64,000 bases of DNA from NCBI GenBank assembly GCA_965242865.1, contig CBDETK010000013.1, positions 896,001-960,000 on the forward strand, in the 5' to 3' direction. Source of the DNA: Candidatus Latescibacterota bacterium (GTDB lineage: Bacteria; Latescibacterota; UBA2968; UBA8231). How positions within the stretch are numbered: the stretch's first letter is position 1; each line of letters opens with the position of its first letter. The notes beneath the pieces are model-generated. The model worked only from the letters and a program-made list of their open reading frames with translations, was not told the origin of the DNA and made no database searches. The position numbers and the translations under genes were made by a program. Positions 3,240 to 33,560 of the stretch are shown one piece after another.

Positions 3240-4400
3240 GTGCGACGCTACGCGCTGGTCGAAGAGGAAGTCGCTGCGATTCCAGCGGCCGAGCTGGCGG
3301 TCGAACAGGCCCTGCACCTGCACGCCCAATACCCCAAAGAGCTGGAGCTCGGCTTTCCCAGCCCGCTCAATGGCCGGTGTTATCAAATCCGGTCGCGGGG
3401 CTATGTCGGCGTGGTGCCATTGGGCGCGGAGGCCGCCTTGGAGATCAATCCCAAAATACGCTGCTCCCTGCTCCTGCCCATGCTGGAGTACGCCTATCAG
3501 TTGCCCAAGATCAGTGCCCACAAGGCGCCGGCCACGATGGGGGATATTTACGAGTTTTGGGCCGAGGTCTTGGCGCGCCAAGTTTTGCAGCGGGTGCGGC
3601 GCGGGCTGTTTTGGGATTACCAAACCCGCGAAGGGTCGAGCCGGTGGGTGCGGGGGCGCATGTACCCCGAGCGGAGTGGCTTGGGAATCCACCCCTACTG
3701 CCGGTTTGCAGAACACACGCCCGATATCATGGACAACCGCATCTTGGCCAGCGCATTGCACGGCCTGCGGCGCTTTGCCTTTCGCCGCGAAAGCATTCGG
3801 CAGATGGTCGGCCGCGCTTGGGGGGCGCTGAGCGAGCTAAACTACCGCCCCATTCGCCCGGCCGATTGCCTCGGCGTACCGTACCACCGGCTAAACGAGG
3901 ACTACCGCCCCATGCATGCGCTGTGCTACCCCTTGCTCCAACAGCGGAGTCCGGCTTGGGGGCTGGGGGCCGAGGAAGGGCCGGCGTATCTGCTGCACAT
4001 GCCGACCTTGTTCGAGCGGTTTTGCACGGCCTTTATCGACCACAAGCTCAAGCACCAGGTCGAACTAAAGGCCCAGTATCACACGCGCCTCAAGGGCGCC
4101 AAGCGGCTTTCCTTCCGCTTGGACATGGCCCTGTTTTCAGCGGCCACCGGGCAGCCGCTGGCGGTAATTGATGCAAAGTACAAGGCCGACGGTCCCGTAG
4201 AAAGCGACGTGCAGCAGGTGGTGGCCTACGCAGTGCAGCTCGGGACGCAGCGGGCCTTTTTGCTCTATCCCAACCGCGATAGGGACGAGCAATTTGAGGT
4301 CGGCCCGGTGGCCGTGCAGACGCTGGGGTACGATCTCGAAGCGGACGATCTGGAAGAAGCGGGCGAGTTCGTGATCTGCAGCTTAGAAAACGCCATATAA
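3240..4400 (+). CDS. mcrC: McrC-family PD-(D/E)xK nuclease subunit
   Basis: GTG 3240 after AGGAG; GYVGVV, INPKI, LFERF, RLDM...VIDAKYK, DVQQVVAY; follows mcrB. Confidence 0.88.
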   Translation: MRRYALVEEEVAAIPAAELAVEQALHLHAQYPKELELGFPSPLNGRCYQIRSRGYVGVVPLGAEAALEINPKIRCSLLLPMLEYAYQLPKISAHKAPATMGDIYEFWAEVLARQVLQRVRRGLFWDYQTREGSSRWVRGRMYPERSGLGIHPYCRFAEHTPDIMDNRILASALHGLRRFAFRRESIRQMVGRAWGALSELNYRPIRPADCLGVPYHRLNEDYRPMHALCYPLLQQRSPAWGLGAEEGPAYLLHMPTLFERFCTAFIDHKLKHQVELKAQYHTRLKGAKRLSFRLDMALFSAATGQPLAVIDAKYKADGPVESDVQQVVAYAVQLGTQRAFLLYPNRDRDEQFEVGPVAVQTLGYDLEADDLEEAGEFVICSLENAI

Positions 4401-4525: not shown

Positions 4526-5779
4526 TTAAGACTCAACCAAGAACAAACTCAAATCAGCCCAGTACGTAATCACGACCAAGCAAGCTAACAAAATGAACAG
4601 AAAGGGCAGGGAGACCCGGTAGAGCCGATGGACGGGTTGTTCAAAGCGAATGCTGGCAATAAAGAGGTTGAGGCCAACCGGCGGCGTTGAGTAGCCGATT
4701 TCCAAGTTGGTTAAAAAGATGATCCCGAGGTGAATGGGGTGAACGTCGTATGCCGCGGCAATGGGCAAAATTAGGGGCACGACGATGAGCAGGGCCGAGA
4801 ACATGTCGATCATGCAGCCAACCGCTAGCAGAAATACATTGAGGAGAATCAAGAACAGCAGACGGCTGCTGATGTGAGCCTCGATGTACGCGAGTAAGCG
4901 CGTTGGAATTTCTGCATCGACGAGGTAATTGGTGTAAGCCATGGCCGCGGCCAAGACCACGAAAATTCCGCCGACCAGCACCATGCTGTCGCAGATGATT
5001 TTGGGCAGTTGCCGGATGGATACCCCGCGGCGGATTAGCACCGCCACCACCAAAGCGTACAGGGTGCTCAGGGCCGCGGCCTCGCTGACGGCGATGAACC
5101 CTCCGTAGATCCCCCCGAAGATCACCACCGGCAACAAAAGCTCCCAACTACAAGCGACAAAGGTCTGCGGCAATTGACGCCAGCCGATGGAGTGCTGGGG
5201 GGCCGGGCACCGCCGACCTTGGAACAAGCTGTAGCCAGACAAGGCTCCCACCAAGAGCAAGCCCGGGGCAATGCCGGCGATAAAAAGCTGATCGACCGGC
5301 GTCTCGGATACGATGCCGTAGATGATCAGGGGCAAGCTGGGCGGAAAGAGCAAGCCCAAGCTGCCCGAGGTGGTAATCAGGCCGAGCGAAAACGAATCGG
5401 GCAGACGCTGTTGTCGCAGCGCGGGCAACAGCAACCCACCGAGCGCGACAATGGTCATCCCGGACGCGCCGGTCAACGCCGTGAAGAGGGCGCAGACGAC
5501 AATGGCCATGATGGCCAGCCCCCCGGGCAGCCAGCCGAGCAAGGCTTGCGAAAAGCGCACGAGCCGGGCGGGGGCGCCGCTTTCGGCGAGGAGAAAGCCC
5601 GTCAGGGCGAAGAGCGGAATAGCCGTTAAGGTCGGCGTTTCGGCTATCCGGTACATCTCGATGAAAACGACGGTTAAATCGATCTCGGCGAGGGAAAAGT
5701 GCAAAAGGGCCAGCGCGCTGATGACCACAAAGAGCGGGACCCCGGCCAGGGCGGCGAGGGCGGCGAGGAGGCTGCTCAC
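4526..5779 (-). CDS. TRAP transporter large permease (DctM family)
   Basis: LTAIPLF, GSLGLLFPPS, TPPVGLNLF; GTG start overlaps the DctQ stop. Confidence 0.92.
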   Translation of the reverse strand: MSSLLAALAALAGVPLFVVISALALLHFSLAEIDLTVVFIEMYRIAETPTLTAIPLFALTGFLLAESGAPARLVRFSQALLGWLPGGLAIMAIVVCALFTALTGASGMTIVALGGLLLPALRQQRLPDSFSLGLITTSGSLGLLFPPSLPLIIYGIVSETPVDQLFIAGIAPGLLLVGALSGYSLFQGRRCPAPQHSIGWRQLPQTFVACSWELLLPVVIFGGIYGGFIAVSEAAALSTLYALVVAVLIRRGVSIRQLPKIICDSMVLVGGIFVVLAAAMAYTNYLVDAEIPTRLLAYIEAHISSRLLFLILLNVFLLAVGCMIDMFSALLIVVPLILPIAAAYDVHPIHLGIIFLTNLEIGYSTPPVGLNLFIASIRFEQPVHRLYRVSLPFLFILLACLVVITYWADLSLFLVES

Positions 5780-25577: not shown

Positions 25578-26458
25578 TGACGCTCGGCGTGGCCGGCCAT
25601 GCCCGCGAGGTGGCGGTCCATCGGCAGGCTCTGCGGGGTTGCCGCGAGATTCGACTGGTGTATCGCGCCGATTGCGCCGCGGTCTTACGCGAAAAAATAG
25701 ATGGGCTGGTGTTGTTGCACGTAGAGGACAAGGCGCATTGGCTCGACGCGGCCAGCGCGGCCGGTCTCCACGTCATGGCGACCCATCCCGTCCAAGAGGT
25801 GAACCATCCGTCCAAGGTCTGCGTGCTGTCGCTGGGGAGGCACACGCGCTTTGGCTCGGCGTTGGCCCGACCGGGCGTGGCGCATTACTCGTTGGAGCTT
25901 TCTTTTACGTCGGCTTCCTTTGAGCGCGTGGACCGCGAGGCGATTTGCAATCAAGCGGCCTTGGATATGTGCGACCTGCTGTTGGGTGCTTGGGGGCCGG
26001 TCGATGTGCTGTACAGCAGGATGCGCAACTTCTTTCATCCCGGTCGCGTGGAGGACGCGTCGGTCGCGCTGCTGAGAATGCACAATGGCGTCGAAGGTTC
26101 GGTCGCGCTCTTCGACGTGGCGGGGGGGACCCCGACCTTGCGGATTCGGTTGTACGCAGCCGACGAGGTCGTGGATGCGTCTTGGCCTTGGGCATGGGCC
26201 GCAGACGATTTGGCGGCGTACTATCGCAATTTCGTCGCTTGTATCCAAGGGCGGGCCCAGCCCCTGTTGGGATTGGGGCAGGTCGCCGAAAGCTATCGGC
26301 TCTTGGCATGGCTGCGCGCCTCGGCGCGACAAGATGCGATAATGTCTTATAAAGATTTTTATGTAAATAAAAAAACAAAAGACAAAAACCATCATCATTC
26401 AGAACTGGATTCCCGCGTTCGTGGGAATGACGACTGTATGCAAAAACAGGGCCGATGA
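25574..26458 (+). CDS. Divergent Gfo/Idh/MocA-like protein with repeat-derived C-terminal tail
   Basis: AGLHV and VEDASVALLRMHNGVEG resemble Gfo/Idh/MocA; the last ~38 codons read through dif-like site C and the palindrome. Confidence 0.55.
   Translation: MMTLGVAGHAREVAVHRQALRGCREIRLVYRADCAAVLREKIDGLVLLHVEDKAHWLDAASAAGLHVMATHPVQEVNHPSKVCVLSLGRHTRFGSALARPGVAHYSLELSFTSASFERVDREAICNQAALDMCDLLLGAWGPVDVLYSRMRNFFHPGRVEDASVALLRMHNGVEGSVALFDVAGGTPTLRIRLYAADEVVDASWPWAWAADDLAAYYRNFVACIQGRAQPLLGLGQVAESYRLLAWLRASARQDAIMSYKDFYVNKKTKDKNHHHSELDSRVRGNDDCMQKQGR
26342..26369 (+). repeat. dif-like site C: ATGTCTTATAA-AGATTT-TTATGTAAATA
   Basis: Left arm identical to sites D and E; spacer identical to A and B. 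Confidence 0.78.
26405..26431. repeat. REP/dRS3-like palindrome copy
   Basis: CTGGATTCCCGCGTTCGTGGGAATGAC. Confidence 0.85.
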
Positions 26459-26482
26459 ACATTCCATTAGGACAGCTATATA

Positions 26483-27016
26483 ATGTATAAGTCATCGTCA
26501 TCCGCCGCGCCTCCCACGTACTTCGCGCTTGGGTTAGCGTCTTTCTTGTTGGCGATTGTGTTGCTGTTCAACCTGCTCAGTCCTATGACCGTGCCGGTTA
26601 CCAAGGAGCAGTTTGAGCAGATTAGAGAGGCCGACCTGATTGAGTATCTAATCGTGCAACCCCGGGGATTTGCTTGGCAGCTCAAACGGGCCGTGCGCGT
26701 CCAAGGGACCAACGGCCCGACTCAGGCCCAGCGGATCGCGCTCGCCGAGCCGGACTCAACGATGGCCGAAAATTGGCAACAAAAGGGGGGTGCGGTGCGG
26801 CAAGAGCGCGATGTTTCGCAGTGGGGGGGGATGATCTTCATGGCCTTGTTGCTCGGCGTGGGGGGGTGGCATATCTGGTCCCAAATACGGCTCGATCTCA
26901 AAGGGGGAGGGGGGCCTCGCCGTCGCTTGCGCGACCTAGAAACCGCGCTCAAACAAGGCAAAATTACCCAAGCCGAATTCCGGCAGCAGGCCGAGCGGCT
27001 GTGGGCCGAATTGTGA
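26483..27016 (+). CDS. Hypothetical 2-TM membrane protein with SHOCT-like C-terminus
   Basis: Two TM segments; LKQGKITQAEF. Confidence 0.6.
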   Translation: MYKSSSSAAPPTYFALGLASFLLAIVLLFNLLSPMTVPVTKEQFEQIREADLIEYLIVQPRGFAWQLKRAVRVQGTNGPTQAQRIALAEPDSTMAENWQQKGGAVRQERDVSQWGGMIFMALLLGVGGWHIWSQIRLDLKGGGGPRRRLRDLETALKQGKITQAEFRQQAERLWAEL

Positions 27017-27030
27017 GGAGCTATGGCGAG
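27010..27030 (+). repeat. 21-bp direct repeat, left copy (duplicate of mutL RBS and start)
   Basis: ATTGTGAGGAGCTATGGCGAG identical to 28268-28288. Confidence 0.92.
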
Positions 27031-27048
27031 AGGTGGGGACGCTTCCAA

Positions 27049-27075
27049 GGCTGGAGGGCAGGACGCCCTCCAGCC
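27049..27075. terminator. GC hairpin downstream of LRR gene 1 (related copy at 30081-30111)
   Basis: GGCTGGAGGGC-AGGAC-GCCCTCCAGCC; no clear U tract. Confidence 0.55.
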
Positions 27076-27136
27076 CGGATGCATTGCAAACAACACGTAG
27101 GTCTGTGTGCTATCGGCGTCGGGGACGCCATCCCCG

Positions 27137-28108
27137 TTACTGTCTGTCGGGCAGGTCAGGGTTGGGTGGGACTGGCTTTGACGCTACGACGCGCCTTGAG
27201 CCAGGTCTTGCTCTCAAGGAGTCGATTGCGGCTCTTGATGCTTCGGAGAGGGGACAACCAGAAATCGATATAAGTTTCAAGTTGGGCAGCTTGCCCGGCA
27301 GGCCGAAGTCACTCAAATCCGAAACCGCGCACGACCTGTTACCTTTGCTATGCATCCTCAGCGTATCCAAGTTGGTCAAATTTGCCAACGGATTCACATT
27401 CGTAAGAAGGGGGTTGCCCATCAGCCTCAGGTGTCGCAAGTTGGTCAAATTTGCCAACGGATTCACATCCGCAAGAAGGTCGTTGTTGGTCAGCCTCAGG
27501 TGTCGCAAGTTGGTCAAACTGTCCAATGGACTCAAGTCCATAAGAAGGTCGTTGGCATCCAGATACAGGTGTCGCAAGTTGGTCAAACTTCTCAATGGAC
27601 TCAAGTCCGTAAGAAGGTCGTTGTCGCCCAGCCGCAGCCACTTCAAGTTGGTCAAACTGGCCAACGGAGTCACATCCGTAAGAAGGGGATTGCTGCTCAG
27701 AGCCAGCGAGTCCAAGTTGGTCAGACGGGCTAACGGAGTCATATCCGAAATCGCGTTGTCGTTCAGATTCAGGAATCGCAAGTTGGTCAAGTGTTCAAGG
27801 CCTTCCAAACGCTGAATGTTTTTACTGCTCGCGTCGAGCTTTGTCAGGAGAGCCAGATCATTTGCGGTAAGGGGCGTCACGTGCGCCAAGTTGGGGGGGA
27901 TGTCCAACAAGGGGTCCAGTGTCTTCCGCACCGCACGCTCCAGATTGGGGTCGATGAAAGGCGAAACTGGGCAGGATGTGCTTGTACTCAGGTGGGCTTT
28001 GCCGGCCGGATGGGGGGCAACCGGCGCGGAGTCGGCGCATCCCATCCAAGTGGCGATGAGGGCCAACAGGGCGAATCCCAGCAGGGTTTTTAGGGGGGTC
28101 AACAACAT
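27137..28108 (-). CDS. Internalin-like leucine-rich-repeat lipoprotein 1
   Basis: WMGC lipobox, DPNLERAVR cap, LxxLTNLxxLxLxxN repeats (mostly 23 aa). Confidence 0.9.
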   Translation of the reverse strand: MLLTPLKTLLGFALLALIATWMGCADSAPVAPHPAGKAHLSTSTSCPVSPFIDPNLERAVRKTLDPLLDIPPNLAHVTPLTANDLALLTKLDASSKNIQRLEGLEHLTNLRFLNLNDNAISDMTPLARLTNLDSLALSSNPLLTDVTPLASLTNLKWLRLGDNDLLTDLSPLRSLTNLRHLYLDANDLLMDLSPLDSLTNLRHLRLTNNDLLADVNPLANLTNLRHLRLMGNPLLTNVNPLANLTNLDTLRMHSKGNRSCAVSDLSDFGLPGKLPNLKLISISGCPLSEASRAAIDSLRARPGSRRVVASKPVPPNPDLPDRQ

Positions 28109-28206
28109 TTTTCCTCTCCTTTCCTTTATCTGGTATGGAGGTTAGGAGGGGGCTAGTCCTAGGAAACGCCCCTCCTTATTTGGTTTATAGGCCGTAGTAT
28201 CTCCAC

Positions 28207-28223
28207 TGCCCGTTATCATTAGT
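28207..28223. repeat. Recombination half-site upstream of LRR1: TGCCCG-TTATCATTAGT
   Basis: 15/17 match to the inverted copy of 31346-31362. Confidence 0.7.
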
Positions 28224-28267
28224 TACTTGAAGGGGGTTAGGCGAGGTCTGGTGGTCTTTGATTCTAT

Positions 28268-28288
28268 ATTGTGAGGAGCTATGGCGAG
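28268..28288 (+). repeat. 21-bp direct repeat, right copy (functional mutL RBS and ATG)
   Basis: Identical to 27010-27030. Confidence 0.92.
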
Positions 28289-30035
28289 TATTATTCGCGT
28301 TCTCGACGAAAATCTGGTTGGAAAAATCGCCGCTGGTGAAGTCGTGGAACGGCCGGCCTCGGTCGTGAAGGAATTGGTCGAAAACTCAATTGATGCGGGG
28401 GCTACAAAAATCCGCGTGGAGATCAAGGCCGGCGGCAAGCAGTTGATTGCGGTGACCGACGATGGCTCGGGCATGACCCGGGAGGATATCGCCTTGTGTG
28501 TGCGCCGGCATGCCACGAGCAAGATGGCCTCGGCGGCCGACCTGTTCTGCATTCAGACGCTGGGCTTTCGCGGCGAAGCCCTAGCCAGCATTGGTGCGGT
28601 CGCTCAGTTGGCCATTGAATCGCGCACCCCGCAAGACGAGGTGGGGACGCGCTTGGTCGTGGAAGGAGGGATAGAGCGCGAGATGCACAGCATGGGACGG
28701 GCGCACGGCACGACCATTGTGGTAAAGAACCTGTTTTTTAATACGCCGGCGCGGCGCAAATTCCTCCGGTCCATCAATGCGGAAGCCCGCCACGTGGCCC
28801 AGACCGTCATCCACTTAGCGGCTGGCTACCCGGCCCTTGGCTTTGAACTAGCACACCAAGACCGCCCGGTCTTGAACTACGCCCCGGCCTCTCGGCGAGC
28901 GCGGGCGGCCGAGTTGCTGGGCTTTCCAGCCGCCGAACTGTTGGAGTTGGCGCACGAGGAGGAGGGTCTCAAAATCGAAGGGGTCTTGGCCGGTCCCGAG
29001 CGCTGCGGCCCCAGCAAGGGCAAGCAATATCTCATTGTACAGGGACGGCCCATTGCTTCGCGGCTGATGACCCGTGCGGTACAGCGGTGTTTTGAGGGCC
29101 TGCTGCCCGAAGGACACCATCCGGTATTCATGCTCTGGATCGATATGGATCCCAAGAAAATCGACGTCAATGTCCACCCGACCAAGCGGGAGATTCGCTT
29201 GGCCAACGAGGGGCAGGTCGTCGCGGCCATTGAAACTAGCGTCCGGCACAGCTTGCGCCTGCCCGAGGTGCAATCCTTTGTCTATGCTCCTCCGCGCTCC
29301 AGCGAGACCGGCCGCGATGAGGGCAGCGAGCCGGTCGCGGTCCGCGTGGGCGAGCCAGCGTCACCAGTGCTGCACACCCTGCCCGCGTCCGGCCCCCCGG
29401 AGGCAACTGCCGGCGACCAACTCGCGATGACCTTTGTCGCCCCGGGCGAGGCCAAAGTCGCTGTCGCCGCAGACGCTGCGATGTGGCAGGTTCACAATCA
29501 GTACATCCTCGTCGAGGTGGCCGATGGCTTGCTTTTTGTCGATCAGCAGGCCGCGCACGAGCGCATCCACTACGACCGGGCCATGGCGCAGCTCGATGGC
29601 GCGACCGGGGAAAGCCAGCAGTTGCTCTTTCCCATCCAGCTAGAAATGGGGGCCGCGGATTTCGAGGTCTTCAACCAAGTGCGGGATGACATTGCCAAGC
29701 TGGGCTTTGTCGTGCGGGACTTTGGGGCGCGGACGGTGTTGGTGGAAGCTGTTCCTGCGGCCTTGGATCGCTTTGGCGAGGGCGACGCTTTTTATCAGCT
29801 CTTGAACGACGTGCGCGATGGCCAGCATTCGGGGCACGCTTGGCGCGAAGCCCTCGTCTTAGCTTATGCGCGCAAGGCGAGTATCGAGAAGGGGCAACGC
29901 CTGAATGCCGAGGCGCAGGCGCATTTGATCAGGGCACTGCTCCAAGTGGAGCGGCCGCACGTAAGCCCGACGGACAAGCCGATTATGGCGCGGATGAAGT
30001 TGAGCGATATGGAGCGGCTGCTACGGAAGTTCTAA
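28281..30035 (+). CDS. mutL: DNA mismatch repair protein MutL
   Basis: IAAGEVVERPASVVKELVENSIDAGA, GFRGEAL, DVNVHPTKRE, DQQAAHER. Confidence 0.97.
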   Translation: MASIIRVLDENLVGKIAAGEVVERPASVVKELVENSIDAGATKIRVEIKAGGKQLIAVTDDGSGMTREDIALCVRRHATSKMASAADLFCIQTLGFRGEALASIGAVAQLAIESRTPQDEVGTRLVVEGGIEREMHSMGRAHGTTIVVKNLFFNTPARRKFLRSINAEARHVAQTVIHLAAGYPALGFELAHQDRPVLNYAPASRRARAAELLGFPAAELLELAHEEEGLKIEGVLAGPERCGPSKGKQYLIVQGRPIASRLMTRAVQRCFEGLLPEGHHPVFMLWIDMDPKKIDVNVHPTKREIRLANEGQVVAAIETSVRHSLRLPEVQSFVYAPPRSSETGRDEGSEPVAVRVGEPASPVLHTLPASGPPEATAGDQLAMTFVAPGEAKVAVAADAAMWQVHNQYILVEVADGLLFVDQQAAHERIHYDRAMAQLDGATGESQQLLFPIQLEMGAADFEVFNQVRDDIAKLGFVVRDFGARTVLVEAVPAALDRFGEGDAFYQLLNDVRDGQHSGHAWREALVLAYARKASIEKGQRLNAEAQAHLIRALLQVERPHVSPTDKPIMARMKLSDMERLLRKF

Positions 30036-30169
30036 AGCTGAGCGCAGATCGGCTATCGGCTTACTACACGACACCAGCGACCCGCCGGAGGGTAGGACGC
30101 CCTCCAGCGGGAGCATTGGAACAACACACGTAGGTCTATGTGCTATCGGCGTCGGGGACGCCGTCCCCG

Positions 30170-31111
30170 TTACTGTCTGTCGGGCAGGTCAGGGTCAGGT
30201 GGGACTGGCTTTGACGCTACGACGCGCCTTGCGCCAGGTCTTGCTTCCAAGGCACGGATTGCGGCTCTTGATGCTTCGGAGAGGGGACAACCAGAAATCG
30301 ATATAAGTTTCAAGCTGGGCAGCTTGCCCGGCAGGCCGAAGTCACTCAAATCCGAAACCTTGCACTCGGAGCTATGCATCTTCAGCGTATCCAAGTTGGC
30401 CAGATTGGCCAATGAATTCACATTCGTAAGATCGGGGTTGCCAGACAGCCTCAGATATTGCAAGTTGGTCAAACTGGCCAGCGGAGTCACATCCGAAATC
30501 GAGTTTGCGCCCAATGTCAACCTTTGCAAGTTGGTCAAACTGGCCAGCGGAGTCACATCCGAAATCGAGTTTACGTTCAGCCTCAGGACTCGCAAGTTGG
30601 TTAAACTTCTCAACGGACTTACATCCGAAATCGAGTTCACGGCCAGCCACAGAGAGTCCAAATTCGTAGCGTGTTGGAGGCCGTCCAAGCTCCCAATGTT
30701 TTTATTTTTTGCGTTGAGCACGGTCAGGGTAGCCAGATCCGTCACTCTAAGGGGCGGCACGGTAGGGTCCGTCAAGCTGCTGGTGGGGTCCCCCCCCACC
30801 TGGGCCCCTAGTGCTGTCCGCACCGCACGCTCCAGACTGGAGTCGGCGAACGTAACGTAGGTCGGTGTGCTATCGGCGTCGGGGATGCCGTCCCCGTCCG
30901 AATCGGTGGCGGTCTGGGTACTGTCGGCGTCGGGTATGCCGTCCCCATCAGAATCGGCGGCAGTCTGGGTGCTGTCTGGACAGGTCAGGGTCAGGTGGGC
31001 TTTGCCGGCCGGATGGGGGGCAACCGGCGCGGAGTCGGCGCATCCCATCCAAGCGGCGATGAATCCCAACAGGGCGAAGCCGAGCAGGGTTTTTATGGGG
31101 TTCAACATCAT
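30170..31111 (-). CDS. Internalin-like leucine-rich-repeat lipoprotein 2 with two DSDGDGIPD motifs
   Basis: Paralog of LRR1; mostly 22-aa LRRs; AGGAGG upstream of ATG 31111. Confidence 0.9.
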   Translation of the reverse strand: MMLNPIKTLLGFALLGFIAAWMGCADSAPVAPHPAGKAHLTLTCPDSTQTAADSDGDGIPDADSTQTATDSDGDGIPDADSTPTYVTFADSSLERAVRTALGAQVGGDPTSSLTDPTVPPLRVTDLATLTVLNAKNKNIGSLDGLQHATNLDSLWLAVNSISDVSPLRSLTNLRVLRLNVNSISDVTPLASLTNLQRLTLGANSISDVTPLASLTNLQYLRLSGNPDLTNVNSLANLANLDTLKMHSSECKVSDLSDFGLPGKLPSLKLISISGCPLSEASRAAIRALEARPGARRVVASKPVPPDPDLPDRQ

Positions 31112-31156
31112 TTTTTCTCTCCTCCTTATTTGGTTTATAGGCCGTGGTATCTCCAC

Positions 31157-31173
31157 TGCCCGTTATCGGTAGT
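31157..31173. repeat. Left inverted repeat TGCCCGTTATCGGTAGT upstream of LRR2
   Basis: Exact reverse complement of 31346-31362. Confidence 0.88.
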
Positions 31174-31320
31174 TACTTGAAGGGGTGAATAGTGGAGGCG
31201 AGGTCTGGTGGGCTTTGATTCCGGTCTGGTAGTCTCTGATTCCATCAGACCGGAAAGCATCCTGCAGTTAATCAGCAATTGGACGTTCAGTCTTTTTATG
31301 AGAGAACTGAAATTTCGTCC

Positions 31321-31348
31321 TTGACTTTTATTTTTTACAACCTATACT
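31321..31348 (+). promoter_or_regulatory. Sigma70-like promoter TTGACT-16 bp-TATACT
   Basis: Near-consensus hexamers pointing to the recombinase; -10 overlaps the palindromic site. Confidence 0.7.
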
Positions 31349-31376
31349 ACCGATAACGGGCATTATCGGTAGTATA
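31343..31376. other. Perfect palindromic tyrosine-recombinase-type site TATACTACCGATAA-CGGGCA-TTATCGGTAGTATA
   Basis: 14-bp arms, 6-bp asymmetric spacer, ATAA-N6-TTAT core; ~110 bp upstream of the recombinase. Confidence 0.85.
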
Positions 31377-31486
31377 AAAACTAGGCGAAGCCCTCGCAAA
31401 ACGCGGCGGCAAAATGCCGCGGTGTTCGCTATATTTATTTTATTCTTTAGCCACTGTTAAGAACATCGCGGATATTTATCCATTTA

Positions 31487-32467
31487 ATGAGTGAGACGAT
31501 CAAACCAATCGTCCGCCGACTGACGCCAACGCCCGCGTTGGTTGCGGACGACCCCCTCGAACAATTTCTCAGCGGCCAGCTCAGCGAGCGCACTCGGCGT
31601 GCGTACTACGCCGACCTCCAGCACTTTTTTGCATCCATCGGCATGGAACTCGCAGACGTCTCCCTCGCCATCTTACGCACGATCACCTTTGAACACGTAG
31701 TCGCCTTTAGAAACCAACTCGCCAGCGAAGGCTACAAGCGCAGCAGCATCAATAGAAAATTGTCCAGCCTGAAGTCGTTGTTCAAGATGTTGGTCGCCTT
31801 GGGCCACATTGGGAAAAATCCGGCCGACTCCGCCTTGGTGCGCGGCTACAGATTGGACGAAACGCTGGTTGGCAAAGCACTTTCCAATGAGGTGTTGAAC
31901 AGACTACAGCAAGCCATTGCCGAGGAAGAAAACGACTTAGTCCGTACGCGCGATGCGGCCATGTTCCATTTGCTCATGTTCGGCGGGCTGCGCCGATCCG
32001 AAGTGGCGGGCGTCGCTTGGGAGGATATATCCTTGGAAGGCGTCTTTCACATTCTGCGCCTGCCCGATACGAAATCGGGCGTGACGCAGGAGATCAAACT
32101 GCAAAACATCGTCTTACATCATCTCGAACTATACAAACAACAGCTACAGAACGCGGGTTGGCCGACGACCGGCAAGGTCTTTATCAGCCTGTCGCGCAAC
32201 CAGTCTCGCGGCCAGCCCCTGACCGACCAGTCGGTAAATCACATCGTCAAGAAGTACGCCCGGCGCACCGGCCTCCCCCAAAACGTCACCGCGCACATGT
32301 TTCGCCATACATGCTGCACCCTAGCGATTGAAGGCGGCGCCAAGCCCCAGCAAGTGCAGGCCCACCTGCGCCACAAGGACCTAAAGACGACCATGCGCTA
32401 CTACGAAAACCGCGAAAAGCTGCTCGACAATGCGTCGGATTATATTAGGATGGGTATGGGTAGTTGA
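31487..32467 (+). CDS. Xer-like tyrosine recombinase
   Basis: TRRAYYADL N-domain, GLRRSE, TKSG, HMFRH, LRH...TTMRY; catalytic residues intact. Confidence 0.95.
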   Translation: MSETIKPIVRRLTPTPALVADDPLEQFLSGQLSERTRRAYYADLQHFFASIGMELADVSLAILRTITFEHVVAFRNQLASEGYKRSSINRKLSSLKSLFKMLVALGHIGKNPADSALVRGYRLDETLVGKALSNEVLNRLQQAIAEEENDLVRTRDAAMFHLLMFGGLRRSEVAGVAWEDISLEGVFHILRLPDTKSGVTQEIKLQNIVLHHLELYKQQLQNAGWPTTGKVFISLSRNQSRGQPLTDQSVNHIVKKYARRTGLPQNVTAHMFRHTCCTLAIEGGAKPQQVQAHLRHKDLKTTMRYYENREKLLDNASDYIRMGMGS

Positions 32468-32545
32468 GCTACCCGGATACACCCCCCGCTATCAGCTTTA
32501 GAACTCCCGCAACAGCCGCCTTATTTGTGTTTTGCTTTATTTTTT

Positions 32546-32573
32546 TGTTTACATAATATATTTTATAAGACAT
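32546..32573 (-). repeat. dif-like site D (best candidate for chromosomal dif): ATGTCTTATAA-AATATA-TTATGTAAACA
   Basis: Spacer plus right arm 15/17 identical to B. subtilis dif TATATA-TTATGTAAACT; intergenic at the gene-orientation switch. Confidence 0.8.
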
Positions 32574-32618
32574 CATATTACGGATATTGCAGATTGAGGT
32601 GTGTTGTGACCTCTCGTG

Positions 32619-33560
32619 TCACTCGGCGATATCCAAGTGCCGCTGAAAGGTCGCCAGATCGGCTGCTTGCACTGCCATGCGATGCAACTGCTTGAGCCGG
32701 TGCAAATCGTGAATCGCGGCAATGCGGGCGGCCAACGAATGGGCGGAGGCCGCCCCAAAGCGAATCTCCAACACGTCGAGAATATCTTCAATGGCGCGGT
32801 TGCGGCCCCCCTGCTCAATGCCCTGCTCAATGCCCTGCTCAATGCCCTGCTCAATGCCCTGCTCAATGCCCTGTTGGGTGAGGTGTTGAGCAAAGGATGA
32901 TTCGCGCATGATTGCGTCCATAAGACCCTCCTGGGAAATAATACGCTGAATGGTGGTCCACTCGTAAGCCAACCCACTCAGTATCGCCAAGCCGCCCAAA
33001 AAGTCAACCTTGACGGCCGGATCCAATGGCATCGCCTGGGTTGCCTGAATGCACTGGCGCAACCACGCTTCCGAGGCCATGCCGGCCGGCGGTTTCATCA
33101 AGGGCGTGAAAGGAAGCAAACCCGACGGACCGGCGCGGACAACCGCTTGTCCCTCGATTTCGCTCAACCGAATGACCTTGTATTGCACCAAGATGCAGTG
33201 GCCGGGCAGGTCTTGGGCGTAGTAGCCCGGATCGCGCCGCCCGGCTTGGGGCCGTAGGTAAATCACGCTGGAATAGACCGGCTGGCGATGTTGTTCAATG
33301 GCGCGGATGATATAGCTGGCCATGCGGAGCGGCATGGGCGGGTCGGTGCGGTCGGTGGTTTGAAACTCGTGATGGACCAACGCCTCTTCACCGGCGATTT
33401 GGGCGCGCATGAGGCTATCGGTTTGGTGGGTTTCGACGGTGGATTGCTCTGGGTTGATGACTTCGCAGGCCGCCACATCGTCTCGTTGGAGGGCGAAGCG
33501 GACGAAGTCGGCGGGATAGGCTTGGATCAGGTGTTTGGAAATGGTATCGTATTCGGCCAT
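32619..33560 (-). CDS. Rpn/YhgA-like PD-(D/E)xK nuclease (putative transposase family)
   Basis: YDTISKHL, TDSL..HEFQ, RMASY, QGIE repeats, LEIRFG tail. Confidence 0.85.
   Translation of the reverse strand: MAEYDTISKHLIQAYPADFVRFALQRDDVAACEVINPEQSTVETHQTDSLMRAQIAGEEALVHHEFQTTDRTDPPMPLRMASYIIRAIEQHRQPVYSSVIYLRPQAGRRDPGYYAQDLPGHCILVQYKVIRLSEIEGQAVVRAGPSGLLPFTPLMKPPAGMASEAWLRQCIQATQAMPLDPAVKVDFLGGLAILSGLAYEWTTIQRIISQEGLMDAIMRESSFAQHLTQQGIEQGIEQGIEQGIEQGIEQGGRNRAIEDILDVLEIRFGAASAHSLAARIAAIHDLHRLKQLHRMAVQAADLATFQRHLDIAE
32809..32873. repeat. 12-bp tandem repeat CCCTGCTCAATG x5 (QGIE)
   Basis: Direct reading. Confidence 0.95.

Follow-up and report, generated by a model that had tools for sequence, protein, structure and literature searches.

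Xer systems are known as housekeeping machinery that acts at a single chromosomal site, and tyrosine recombinases require matched crossover regions. Invertible promoters, such as fimS with FimB/FimE and the invertons of Bacteroides, consist of short inverted repeats that flank a promoter segment in front of a surface- or secreted-protein gene and are served by a tyrosine-type recombinase. The locus analyzed here lies in a 64,000-nucleotide stretch (the window; C13:896001-960000) of the 13-contig genome of a Candidatus Latescibacterota bacterium. It comprises a palindromic site, B, the adjacent gene for an additional Xer-family tyrosine recombinase, xer3, and two genes for leucine-rich repeat (LRR) proteins whose leaders repeat part of B. 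We consider it probable that B is the cognate core site of an extra, lineage-specific xer3 at the replication terminus, that LRR leaders with hybrid sites were inserted beside it later, and that xer3 uses pairs of one full and one hybrid site, with inversion of the intervening segment as the likeliest outcome.

Several described systems are close to this arrangement. XerS/difSL of streptococci and lactococci, and also XerH/difH and XerA/dif, link one Xer-family recombinase to its own atypical site, which lies at the terminus and has two arms around a short center, according to the cited sections of these reports (PMC5357621, PMC2731167, PMC1914069). In Mycoplasma agalactiae, the Xer1 recombinase is encoded beside paralogous lipoprotein genes (vpma) with a conserved 5' untranslated region and signal peptide, and the recombination sites lie in these untranslated regions (PMC2268961, cited section). 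The attachment sites of integrative mobile elements exploiting Xer (IMEX), such as TLCphi attP and difGGI, retain one arm and the central region (PMC5357621, same sections). Modules flanked by inverted Xer sites are also known, namely the pdif modules of Acinetobacter, as covered in the cited parts of four reports (PMC5357621, PMC6449649, PMC12907356, PMC9947245).

The elements of the present locus, in window coordinates, are as follows:

31343..31376, no strand: B site, perfect 14-6-14 palindrome TATACTACCGATAA-CGGGCA-TTATCGGTAGTATA; putative functional core 11-6-11 (31346-31373)
31487..32467, plus strand: xer3, 326 aa, third, lineage-specific Xer-family tyrosine recombinase
31157..31173, minus strand: hybrid site in the LRR2 leader; inner arm (11 nt) and center (6 nt) identical to B and inverted, gene-side arm unrelated (4/11)
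28207..28223, minus strand: hybrid-site copy in the LRR1 leader, 15/17; 17/17 in the related strain of run X1
31174..31345, no strand: segment between B and the LRR2 site, 172 bp; inverted if the two sites recombine
30170..31111, minus strand: LRR2, secreted/lipoprotein-like LRR protein with acidic DSDGDGIPD repeats (Pfam LRR_4, 2.2e-21; ...AAWMGC in the translation)
27137..28108, minus strand: LRR1, paralogue of LRR2 (Pfam LRR_4, 4.1e-27)
28281..30035, plus strand: mutL; in relatives, the B site lies directly after this gene

The open reading frames (ORFs) follow one another in the order LRR1, mutL, LRR2, xer3, an unknown ORF and leuS. An earlier note on this DNA had proposed a recombinase-controlled promoter switch serving the two LRR genes, and the observations from which it started are borne out. 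The perfect 14-6-14 palindrome with the spacer CGGGCA is read directly at 31343-31376; its inner arms carry ATAA/TTAT around the asymmetric center. Upstream of LRR2, TGCCCGTTATCGGTAGT at 31157-31173 is the exact (17/17) reverse complement of 31346-31362, and upstream of LRR1, TGCCCGTTATCATTAGT at 28207-28223 agrees at 15/17 positions, where the X1 strain differs by 28218 A>G and 28219 T>G. The distance of about 45 bp quoted for LRR2 is also correct, as the half-site ends 45 nt from the most likely start codon (ATG 31111, with AGGAGG upstream). The caveat that the outer arms do not resemble the binding arm was justified, since the gene-side arm matches the B arm at 4/11 positions only. Identity between LRR leader and B thus covers exactly the inner arm and the center, and it stops at the outer edge of the arm and at the far side of the center. 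The 28207 and 31157 sites are not independent, because both lie within a duplicated leader (28171-28235 versus 31121-31185, 95% over 65 nt). This duplication identifies LRR1 and LRR2 as paralogous cassettes, and the left 48 nt of the 172-bp segment are part of it.

With up to 3 mismatches allowed, the 17-mer has three matches within the window; the expected number is 0.04, and 0/100 shuffles reach three. In the whole 6.0-Mb genome, matches with up to 2 mismatches are confined to these three places, and four others with 3 mismatches lie in unrelated contexts; the genome-wide search that had been suggested for further such sites therefore yielded no additional place at up to 2 mismatches. Chance as the origin of the copies is ruled out by the window and genome-wide counts together with the pair counts given below. 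We also rejected a terminator as the meaning of the palindrome, because it has no T-run and a terminator scan lists none there on the relevant strand. A search for tRNA-like or other known RNA elements gave no Rfam match at E ≤ 1, either in window positions 26000-33000 or at the second locus described next.

The strongest argument that such pairs are used comes from this second locus. Inverted arm-plus-center pairs with identical centers within 1.5 kb of each other occur exactly twice in the genome (null mean 0.135), namely as B/LRR2 and as C13:4599244/4599507 (C13:4599244-4599534; positions 4001-4291 of locus L004). At the latter, a full palindromic site follows the stop codon of one gene, and a second site with the reverse-complementary center lies 236 bp further on, at 8 nt from the start codon (ATG) of a gene for a secreted protein of 298 aa. 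The gene-side arm of this hybrid site is degenerate and includes an AAGGAG ribosome-binding sequence; with the degenerate arm next to the gene, the geometry is the same as at LRR2. The locus is found in 30/30 genomes of the same genus. Both sites could be recognized in 12 of the 30 copies examined, and their centers are reverse complements in 12/12, even though the center itself varies (TACCCC in 4, TATCCC in 5, TGCCCC in 2 and TTCCCC in 1). Paired sites with co-varying centers are present in 11 same-genus relatives, and one position of the inner arm co-varies as well. The segment between the sites holds a conserved promoter-like motif and a conserved leader of ~150 nt that matches no Rfam family. 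As tyrosine recombinases need matched crossover regions, the co-variation of the centers argues that pairs of a full and a hybrid site are used.

The recombinase had been described as intact, and this holds: ORF 31487-32467 contains a Pfam Phage_integrase domain (PF00589, 8.4e-28) and an N-terminal SAM-like domain (PF02899), and it carries the motifs GGLRRSE, TKSG, HMFRH, LRH and MRYY, which we take to be the tyrosine-recombinase catalytic set. Its best NCBIfam scores are to XerC (132.7 bits) and XerD (118.9 bits), and XerC, XerD, XerA and XerS all score far below their cut-offs. The best relatives of solved structure are XerD (1a0p, 6e-17) and a XerA-like protein (4a8e, 5e-12); the 304 relatives at E ≤ 1e-20 bear generic names only. 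XerD (334.5 bits, cut-off 329.6) and a XerC-like protein (307 bits) are encoded elsewhere in the same genome. All three Xers are present in 15/15 same-genus genomes searched, while 5/6 genomes of a sister family have only two. We also considered that xer3 might belong to a family of paralogous invertases and discarded this, as tblastn with xer3 at 1e-5 matches only xer3 itself. The xer3 orthologue in a genome of another genus (G007:C1:1158607-1159548) is reported with one in-frame TAG.

Relatives of the module were collected from species-representative genomes, titled Latescibacterota or Gemmatimonadota metagenome-assembled genomes, which gave 48 loci with recombinases 58-93% identical. A B-type 11-6-11 site lies 58-472 nt upstream of the recombinase match in 43/48 loci, where chance would give ~0.03 per locus for the pattern used. 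Among the remaining five, the site is 2.5-4 kb away in 2 and was not found in 3, of which 2 have no upstream sequence. The consensus across loci is ACTAaCGATAA, a 6-nt center and TTATCnnTAGT, usually with an additional TAT/ATA. Most of the genus has the center CAGGCA; the variant CGGGCA is shared by the present genome and its closest relative, L006. In five loci it is flipped relative to the gene: L023, L025, L033, L045 and L052 have TGCCTG instead of CAGGCA while both flanks keep their order, which could be a loop inversion within a perfect palindrome. The synteny leftflank-mutL-site-recombinase-leuS is kept even in distant loci, and in most of the five relatives that we compared base by base, B lies ~20 nt past the mutL stop. 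On the basis of this conserved linkage, the assignment of B as a genuine tyrosine-recombinase core site of the adjacent gene is supported. An 18-mer from the B core matches at least 80 metagenome contigs, many of them with B-type palindromes whose outer arms co-vary, and two contigs carry a recombinase 35-38% identical to xer3 about 150 nt from a B-type site, which indicates that this design of site and recombinase is widespread.

The cumulative GC skew of the 5.61-Mb contig reaches its maximum, conventionally read as the replication terminus, at C13:927,232 (window position 31,232), 115 bp from B, and its minimum 2.76 Mb away. In 3/3 other complete genomes, one of them from another genus, the skew changes from plus to minus across xer3 (20-kb samples at 60, 150 and 300 kb on each side, which resolves the change to ±60 kb). 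By the usual reading of skew, the B-xer3 locus is therefore the replication terminus.

The LRR genes are a recent, species-specific addition to this module. The block geneX-mutL-B-xer3 (geneX being a small conserved ORF upstream) occurs without LRR cassettes in the five relatives compared, and the leader with the half-site is found in 1/76 family genomes, the present one. The LRR1 cassette (27031-28267) sits between two exact 21-nt direct repeats (27010-27030 and 28268-28288), and LRR2 together with the 172-bp segment occupies the gap between mutL and B. The genome contains more than 100 blastn segments of this LRR family, and the leader is common to LRR1 and LRR2 only. Judging from these comparisons, LRR1 and LRR2 are insertions into the block in this species only. 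Each of the 75 other family genomes searched has B and the recombinase but no LRR gene with them, so that the module did not arise as a switch for LRR genes, and the palindrome is no LRR-specific switch of the kind that the earlier note had proposed. Among relatives, 0/45 loci with a recognized site have a second exact copy of arm end plus center within ±6 kb of it; a half-site scan gave 1-mismatch 11-mers in 13 loci, where they lack arm similarity. The 21-nt repeat around LRR1 is the junction of geneX stop and mutL start, which is single-copy in relatives. In L006, a degenerate B-like site right after mutL (4074-4101) and a perfect B 1.46 kb further on (5529-5556) are in direct orientation and enclose an ankyrin-repeat fragment and a duplicated small membrane-protein gene, an IMEX-like layout.

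Further B-like sites exist elsewhere in the assembly. Three more full palindromes (C13:2038874, 3233543 and 3504170; loci L001-L003) have other centers and 3/22 mismatches each, against ~0.014 expected; two of them adjoin ankyrin-repeat genes, and partner half-sites were found for none of the three. Contigs C6, C9 and C12 (L005) contain a phage-like unit of ~10.3 kb with terminase, portal and GH108 lysin genes, assembled as repeats. It bears a B-like site with the center ATCCTA and no integrase. It may exploit xer3, and the bin contamination of 6.8% makes its membership in the genome uncertain.

From these data we propose the following mechanism. B, with its 11-6-11 core and 3-nt palindromic extension, would be the cognate core recombination site of xer3, and together they would make up a module that is passed on vertically and lies between mutL and leuS, at the terminus in a Latescibacterota-like family. 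By analogy with XerS/difSL and XerA/dif, an xer3 homodimer is expected to bind both identical arms of B and to exchange strands across the asymmetric 6-nt center. LRR1 and LRR2 are paralogous cassettes of a very large LRR family that were inserted into the block in this species only. Each of their leaders would provide a hybrid site composed of the inner arm, the species-specific center CGGGCA and a degenerate gene-side arm, inverted relative to B, with inner arm and center exact at LRR2 and 15/17 at LRR1. On pairs of a full and a hybrid site, xer3 may act such that the short segment between them is most likely inverted, and at LRR2 the inverted 172-bp segment would carry the TTGACT/TATACT element described below toward the gene. 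As judged from the arrangement of the sites, this inversion is geometrically possible and unproven.

The module shares several features with the single-recombinase Xer/dif systems: a recombinase of the Xer clade, arms of ~11 bp with the inner ends ATAA/TTAT around a short center (6 nt in B, 6-8 bp in the class), a position at the terminus and linkage of site and gene. Unlike in XerS/difSL, the arms of B are perfectly palindromic over 14 nt, extra B-type sites exist, and xer3 scores far below the NCBIfam cut-offs for XerS as well as XerA, XerC and XerD; XerD and a XerC-like protein are kept, so that xer3 is not the sole Xer of its genome. Xer1/Vpma, Mbr/Vsp and HvsR/Vsa are Xer-like recombinases that shuffle one promoter among surface-lipoprotein genes, and the likeness lies in sites within shared leaders beside the recombinase. 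At our locus, inverted sites 172 bp apart match at 17/17 positions, have an identical crossover region and lie in conserved leaders of paralogues next to xer3. Unlike in Xer1/Vpma, there are two genes only, both confined to one species, one arm of each leader site is degenerate, the full site is an ancient site of the terminus, and no switching was seen in contigs. Invertible promoters are resembled by the 17-nt inverted repeats, the segment of 172-236 bp and the promoter-like element before a surface- or secreted-protein gene. They differ in that one repeat here is a full palindromic Xer-type site, which also stands alone in every relative, and in that both orientations were not observed. As in IMEX and pdif modules, the secondary sites keep one arm and the center, cargo genes lie beside the chromosomal site, and the site is empty in relatives. 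In contrast to these elements, the LRR sites are not oriented and placed as integration at B would leave them, and the recombinase is not XerC/XerD; the sites are inverted, with no hybrid site at the far end, and the direct layout occurs in L006 with other cargo. Thus, B-xer3 falls short of the single-recombinase terminus systems, as it is not the only Xer of its genome, and of the invertible switches, as both orientations have not been observed.

Whether a promoter is available for switching was assessed separately, and two elements are relevant:

31321..31348, plus strand: sigma-70-like TTGACT-16-TATACT, facing xer3; score 10/12; its -10 box is the outer part of a B arm
31371..31399, minus strand: mirror promoter-like TTGCGA-17-TATACT, facing LRR2; score 9/12; it uses the other outer arm

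The TTGACT box (31321-31326), a 16-nt spacer and TATACT (31343-31348) are read directly, and the -10 box overlaps the left B arm as had been noted. The further claim that these boxes form a promoter fared less well. The element is present with 10/12 matches, but a scan of 27950-31600 gave 2 sites against 1.2 expected in shuffles, all of them consensus matches, and TATACT belongs to the conserved 14-nt arm of B. The mirror site lies outside the 172-bp segment and already faces LRR2 without a flip. Apart from this genome, the TTGACT box is found in L019 alone, with B at a distance of 58 nt from xer3 there; the element is a plausible xer3 promoter that overlaps the site.

We looked for flipped forms in the contigs of four public runs. 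Contigs drop rare variants, so that this search argues against a major flipped form only. In run X10 (depth ~154), contigs covering 31024-32600 and 28021-30193 are in reference orientation with zero differences, and run X8 has the same two contigs at a depth of 3-3.5. In run X1, depth is zero over 31197-31353, with loose ends at 31379 and 31411. A search of metagenome contigs for the leader site gave 0 matches. The inverted junctions that the earlier note had called for, at high coverage or in relatives, were found neither in the contigs of the four runs nor in metagenome contigs. Both orientations, as an invertible switch would show them, are lacking in all of these sources: 0/25 copies are flipped at the second locus, and the leader is absent from the 75 other genomes. 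A comparison of isomers of the LRR segment across species is impossible, as the leader occurs only in the present genome. A joint reported as 'skips 1798' is the left end of the paralogous LRR1 (27010-27074) aligned to 28268-28288 and 30087, and not a deletion.

Several observations weigh against recombination between full and hybrid sites by a terminus recombinase. No strand-changing joints are listed in the contigs of the four runs, and the segment at the second locus has the same orientation in 25/25 scorable loci. The paired sites are gone from the second locus in 13/24 genomes tested, where the genes, the promoter-like motif and the ~150-nt leader are kept, which indicates that the pair is dispensable. 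Tyrosine-recombinase chemistry does not call for the co-variation of an inner-arm position, which base pairing would explain equally. At the LRR sites, the gene-side arm agrees with the B arm at only 4/11 positions, and the promoters, as seen in the sequence, are consensus matches only. XerC/XerD are universal in these genomes, so that a role of xer3 in dimer resolution is not needed, and the terminus position could be a frozen accident of an earlier element integration. The earlier idea of a switch therefore stands in part: a recombination-type site of the neighboring enzyme, competent-looking inverted partners and a second locus with the same geometry speak for it, and the ancient module, the chance-level promoter and the missing flipped junction speak against it.

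In its original form, the switch had three self-limiting states, with one promoter serving xer3, LRR2 (after a 206-bp flip) or LRR1 (after a 3.2-kb flip that also inverts mutL), as in Xer1/Vpma; it predicts junctions joining ...TATACTACCGATAACGGGCA to GTGGAGATAC.... We regard this form as quite unlikely. The geometry is right, we count all three sites as having the same center, the related X1 strain has the LRR1 site at 17/17, and the second locus repeats the site geometry. The paralogous lipoprotein-like LRR genes share a 5' leader and signal peptide, as vpma genes do in the cited section (PMC2268961). However, the module is older than the LRR genes, which the other 75 family genomes lack at it, no flipped junction appears in the contigs of the four runs or in metagenome contigs, TATACT is an arm of the conserved site with a promoter score at chance level for the region, and the mirror site faces LRR2 without any flip. 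Relatives have a conserved element upstream of xer3 and downstream of B, so that TTGACT need not be required, and the 3.2-kb flip would set mutL against replication and away from its upstream context. Three states would need an inversion of mutL and the use of a 15/17 site, and sequence identity is all that speaks for them. An origin of the half-sites as attachment-site relics is unlikely as well; here the LRR cassette would once have moved as, or with, a Xer-exploiting element of the IMEX or dif-module type and have no present regulatory role. Identity of one arm and the central region with a divergent second arm is what TLCphi attP and difGGI have, as far as the cited section goes (PMC5357621). 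The cassettes are species-specific insertions beside B, L006 has its ankyrin-repeat fragment enclosed by two directly oriented sites, a degenerate one after mutL and a perfect B, other B-like palindromes adjoin ankyrin-repeat genes, and the phage-like element has a B-like site and no integrase. Yet integration at B would leave directly oriented sites and place a hybrid site at the cassette end that faces mutL, whereas the observed site is inverted and lies at the opposite end, on the B side; a second hybrid site was looked for and not found. Moreover, LRR1 is bordered by the 21-nt duplication of the mutL start and not by B-type sites, and the center is the lineage's own CGGGCA variant, which points to a local origin.

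Two explanations that dispense with recombination are less probable still. Repression by xer3 of its own promoter on the palindrome, with the single good arm in the LRR leaders recruiting it as a transcription factor, would make B mainly an operator, which we judge very unlikely. It would suit the -10-like boxes of both strands inside the B arms and L019, which has no upstream element besides TTGACT-N17-TATACT and a distance of 58 nt between B and the start codon. It leaves unexplained why the asymmetric center is copied exactly in the leaders and co-varies at the second locus, and also the B-like site on the phage-like element and the Xer-like 11-6-11 ATAA/TTAT architecture. Pairing at the RNA level, which we hold to be highly improbable, would join the 5' end of an LRR2 mRNA started from the minus-strand promoter-like site in the right arm to the leader 172 nt downstream, while at the second locus the helix would compete with a hairpin hiding the ribosome-binding sequence. 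The minus-strand TTGCGA-17-TATACT at 31399-31371 could provide such a start; the gene-side arm of the second locus has AAGGAG, the inner arm has the complementary CUCC and co-varies with its partner as in a helix, and predicted duplexes reach -43 to -56 kcal/mol in 11 genomes. Against this, the pairing is lost in 13/24 genomes while the leader is conserved, and the conserved promoter-like motif lies downstream of the distal site, which would leave that site untranscribed barring read-through. There is no Rfam family match, every pair is exact Watson-Crick with no G-U, LRR1 has no nearby partner, and the arms are recombinase arms, those of B in L013 being identical to the second-locus sites found in most relatives.

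Returning to the reading that we favor, in which xer3 acts on full and hybrid sites, a whole bacterial family carries an additional Xer-type recombinase and a perfectly palindromic terminus site besides XerC/XerD, and further copies of the site precede genes for secreted or host-interaction-type proteins and sit on a phage-like element. If the secondary sites recombine, a chromosome-segregation toolkit would be linked to phase variation of eukaryote-like proteins in an uncultured animal symbiont, and newly duplicated surface genes would have a simple route to become switchable. A bolder version, which we find doubtful, is that xer3 is a terminus-anchored master invertase of small full-plus-hybrid invertons that switch secreted or eukaryote-like surface proteins in this sponge-associated bacterium. 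The outer arm of each hybrid site would then double as leader or ribosome-binding sequence, and new members such as the LRR cassettes would be wired in by gaining an arm and a center beside B. Should strand exchange at B be coupled to chromosome segregation as in other Xer systems, switching would be tied to cell division.

The block around B is itself bordered by a further kind of site (type A), which is related to XerCD-type dif:

26342..26369, plus strand: type-A site, XerCD-type dif-like, ATGTCTTATAA-AGATTT-TTATGTAAATA; left border of the recurrently inverted block
32546..32573, minus strand: type-A site, ATGTCTTATAA-AATATA-TTATGTAAACA; right border of the block
26483..27016, plus strand: geneX, small conserved ORF, first gene of the block; weak match to GvpG, below the cut-off only

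A search with XerCD-type arms gave 7 sites in the genome, 6 of which lie within 47 kb around the terminus. Their polarity is mirrored about it, with plus sites at 4390, 20804 and 26342 on the left and minus sites at 32573, 36512 and 50985 on the right. Several of these sites overlap a start codon (leuS, miaA-like), others are found at the 3' ends of genes; we rejected a role as plain promoters, as two sit at 3' ends in convergent gaps. The cluster may represent the true dif, fork-trap-like sites or something else.

The innermost pair flanks geneX-mutL-B-xer3, and both of its sites are present in 22/25 loci examined, window included. Relative to its flanks, this block has one orientation in 14/24 genomes and the other in 10/24 (the window block and loci L006-L028 and L047). 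On the mutL+xer3 tree, this amounts to at least 7 orientation changes, 6 of them forced by well-supported branches, a count no lower than in label shuffles. Comparison within four sister pairs shows that the outer flank, like the invariant arm ATGTCTTATAA, stays fixed, while the variable 6-nt center and the TATGTAAAYA arm move with the block, which places the crossover at the boundary of arm and center of the type-A sites. Identical centers were considered as proof of exchange and not used, as 5/22 pairs match and the centers are AT-rich. Both LRR cassettes lie inside the flipping block. Even if secondary sites do not recombine, the recurrent site-specific flips that distinguish sister species in this block offer a clear case, provided by nature, of inversion at dif-like sites.

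Two further features are located near the right-hand end of the block. The stretch 32492-32519, past the stop codon of xer3 and before the right type-A site, is a 28-nt inverted copy (89%) of the mutL 3' end (30014-30041). Between this type-A site and leuS, a 313-aa ORF on the minus strand (32619-33560) matches no Pfam family and is found only here and, in part, in L006.

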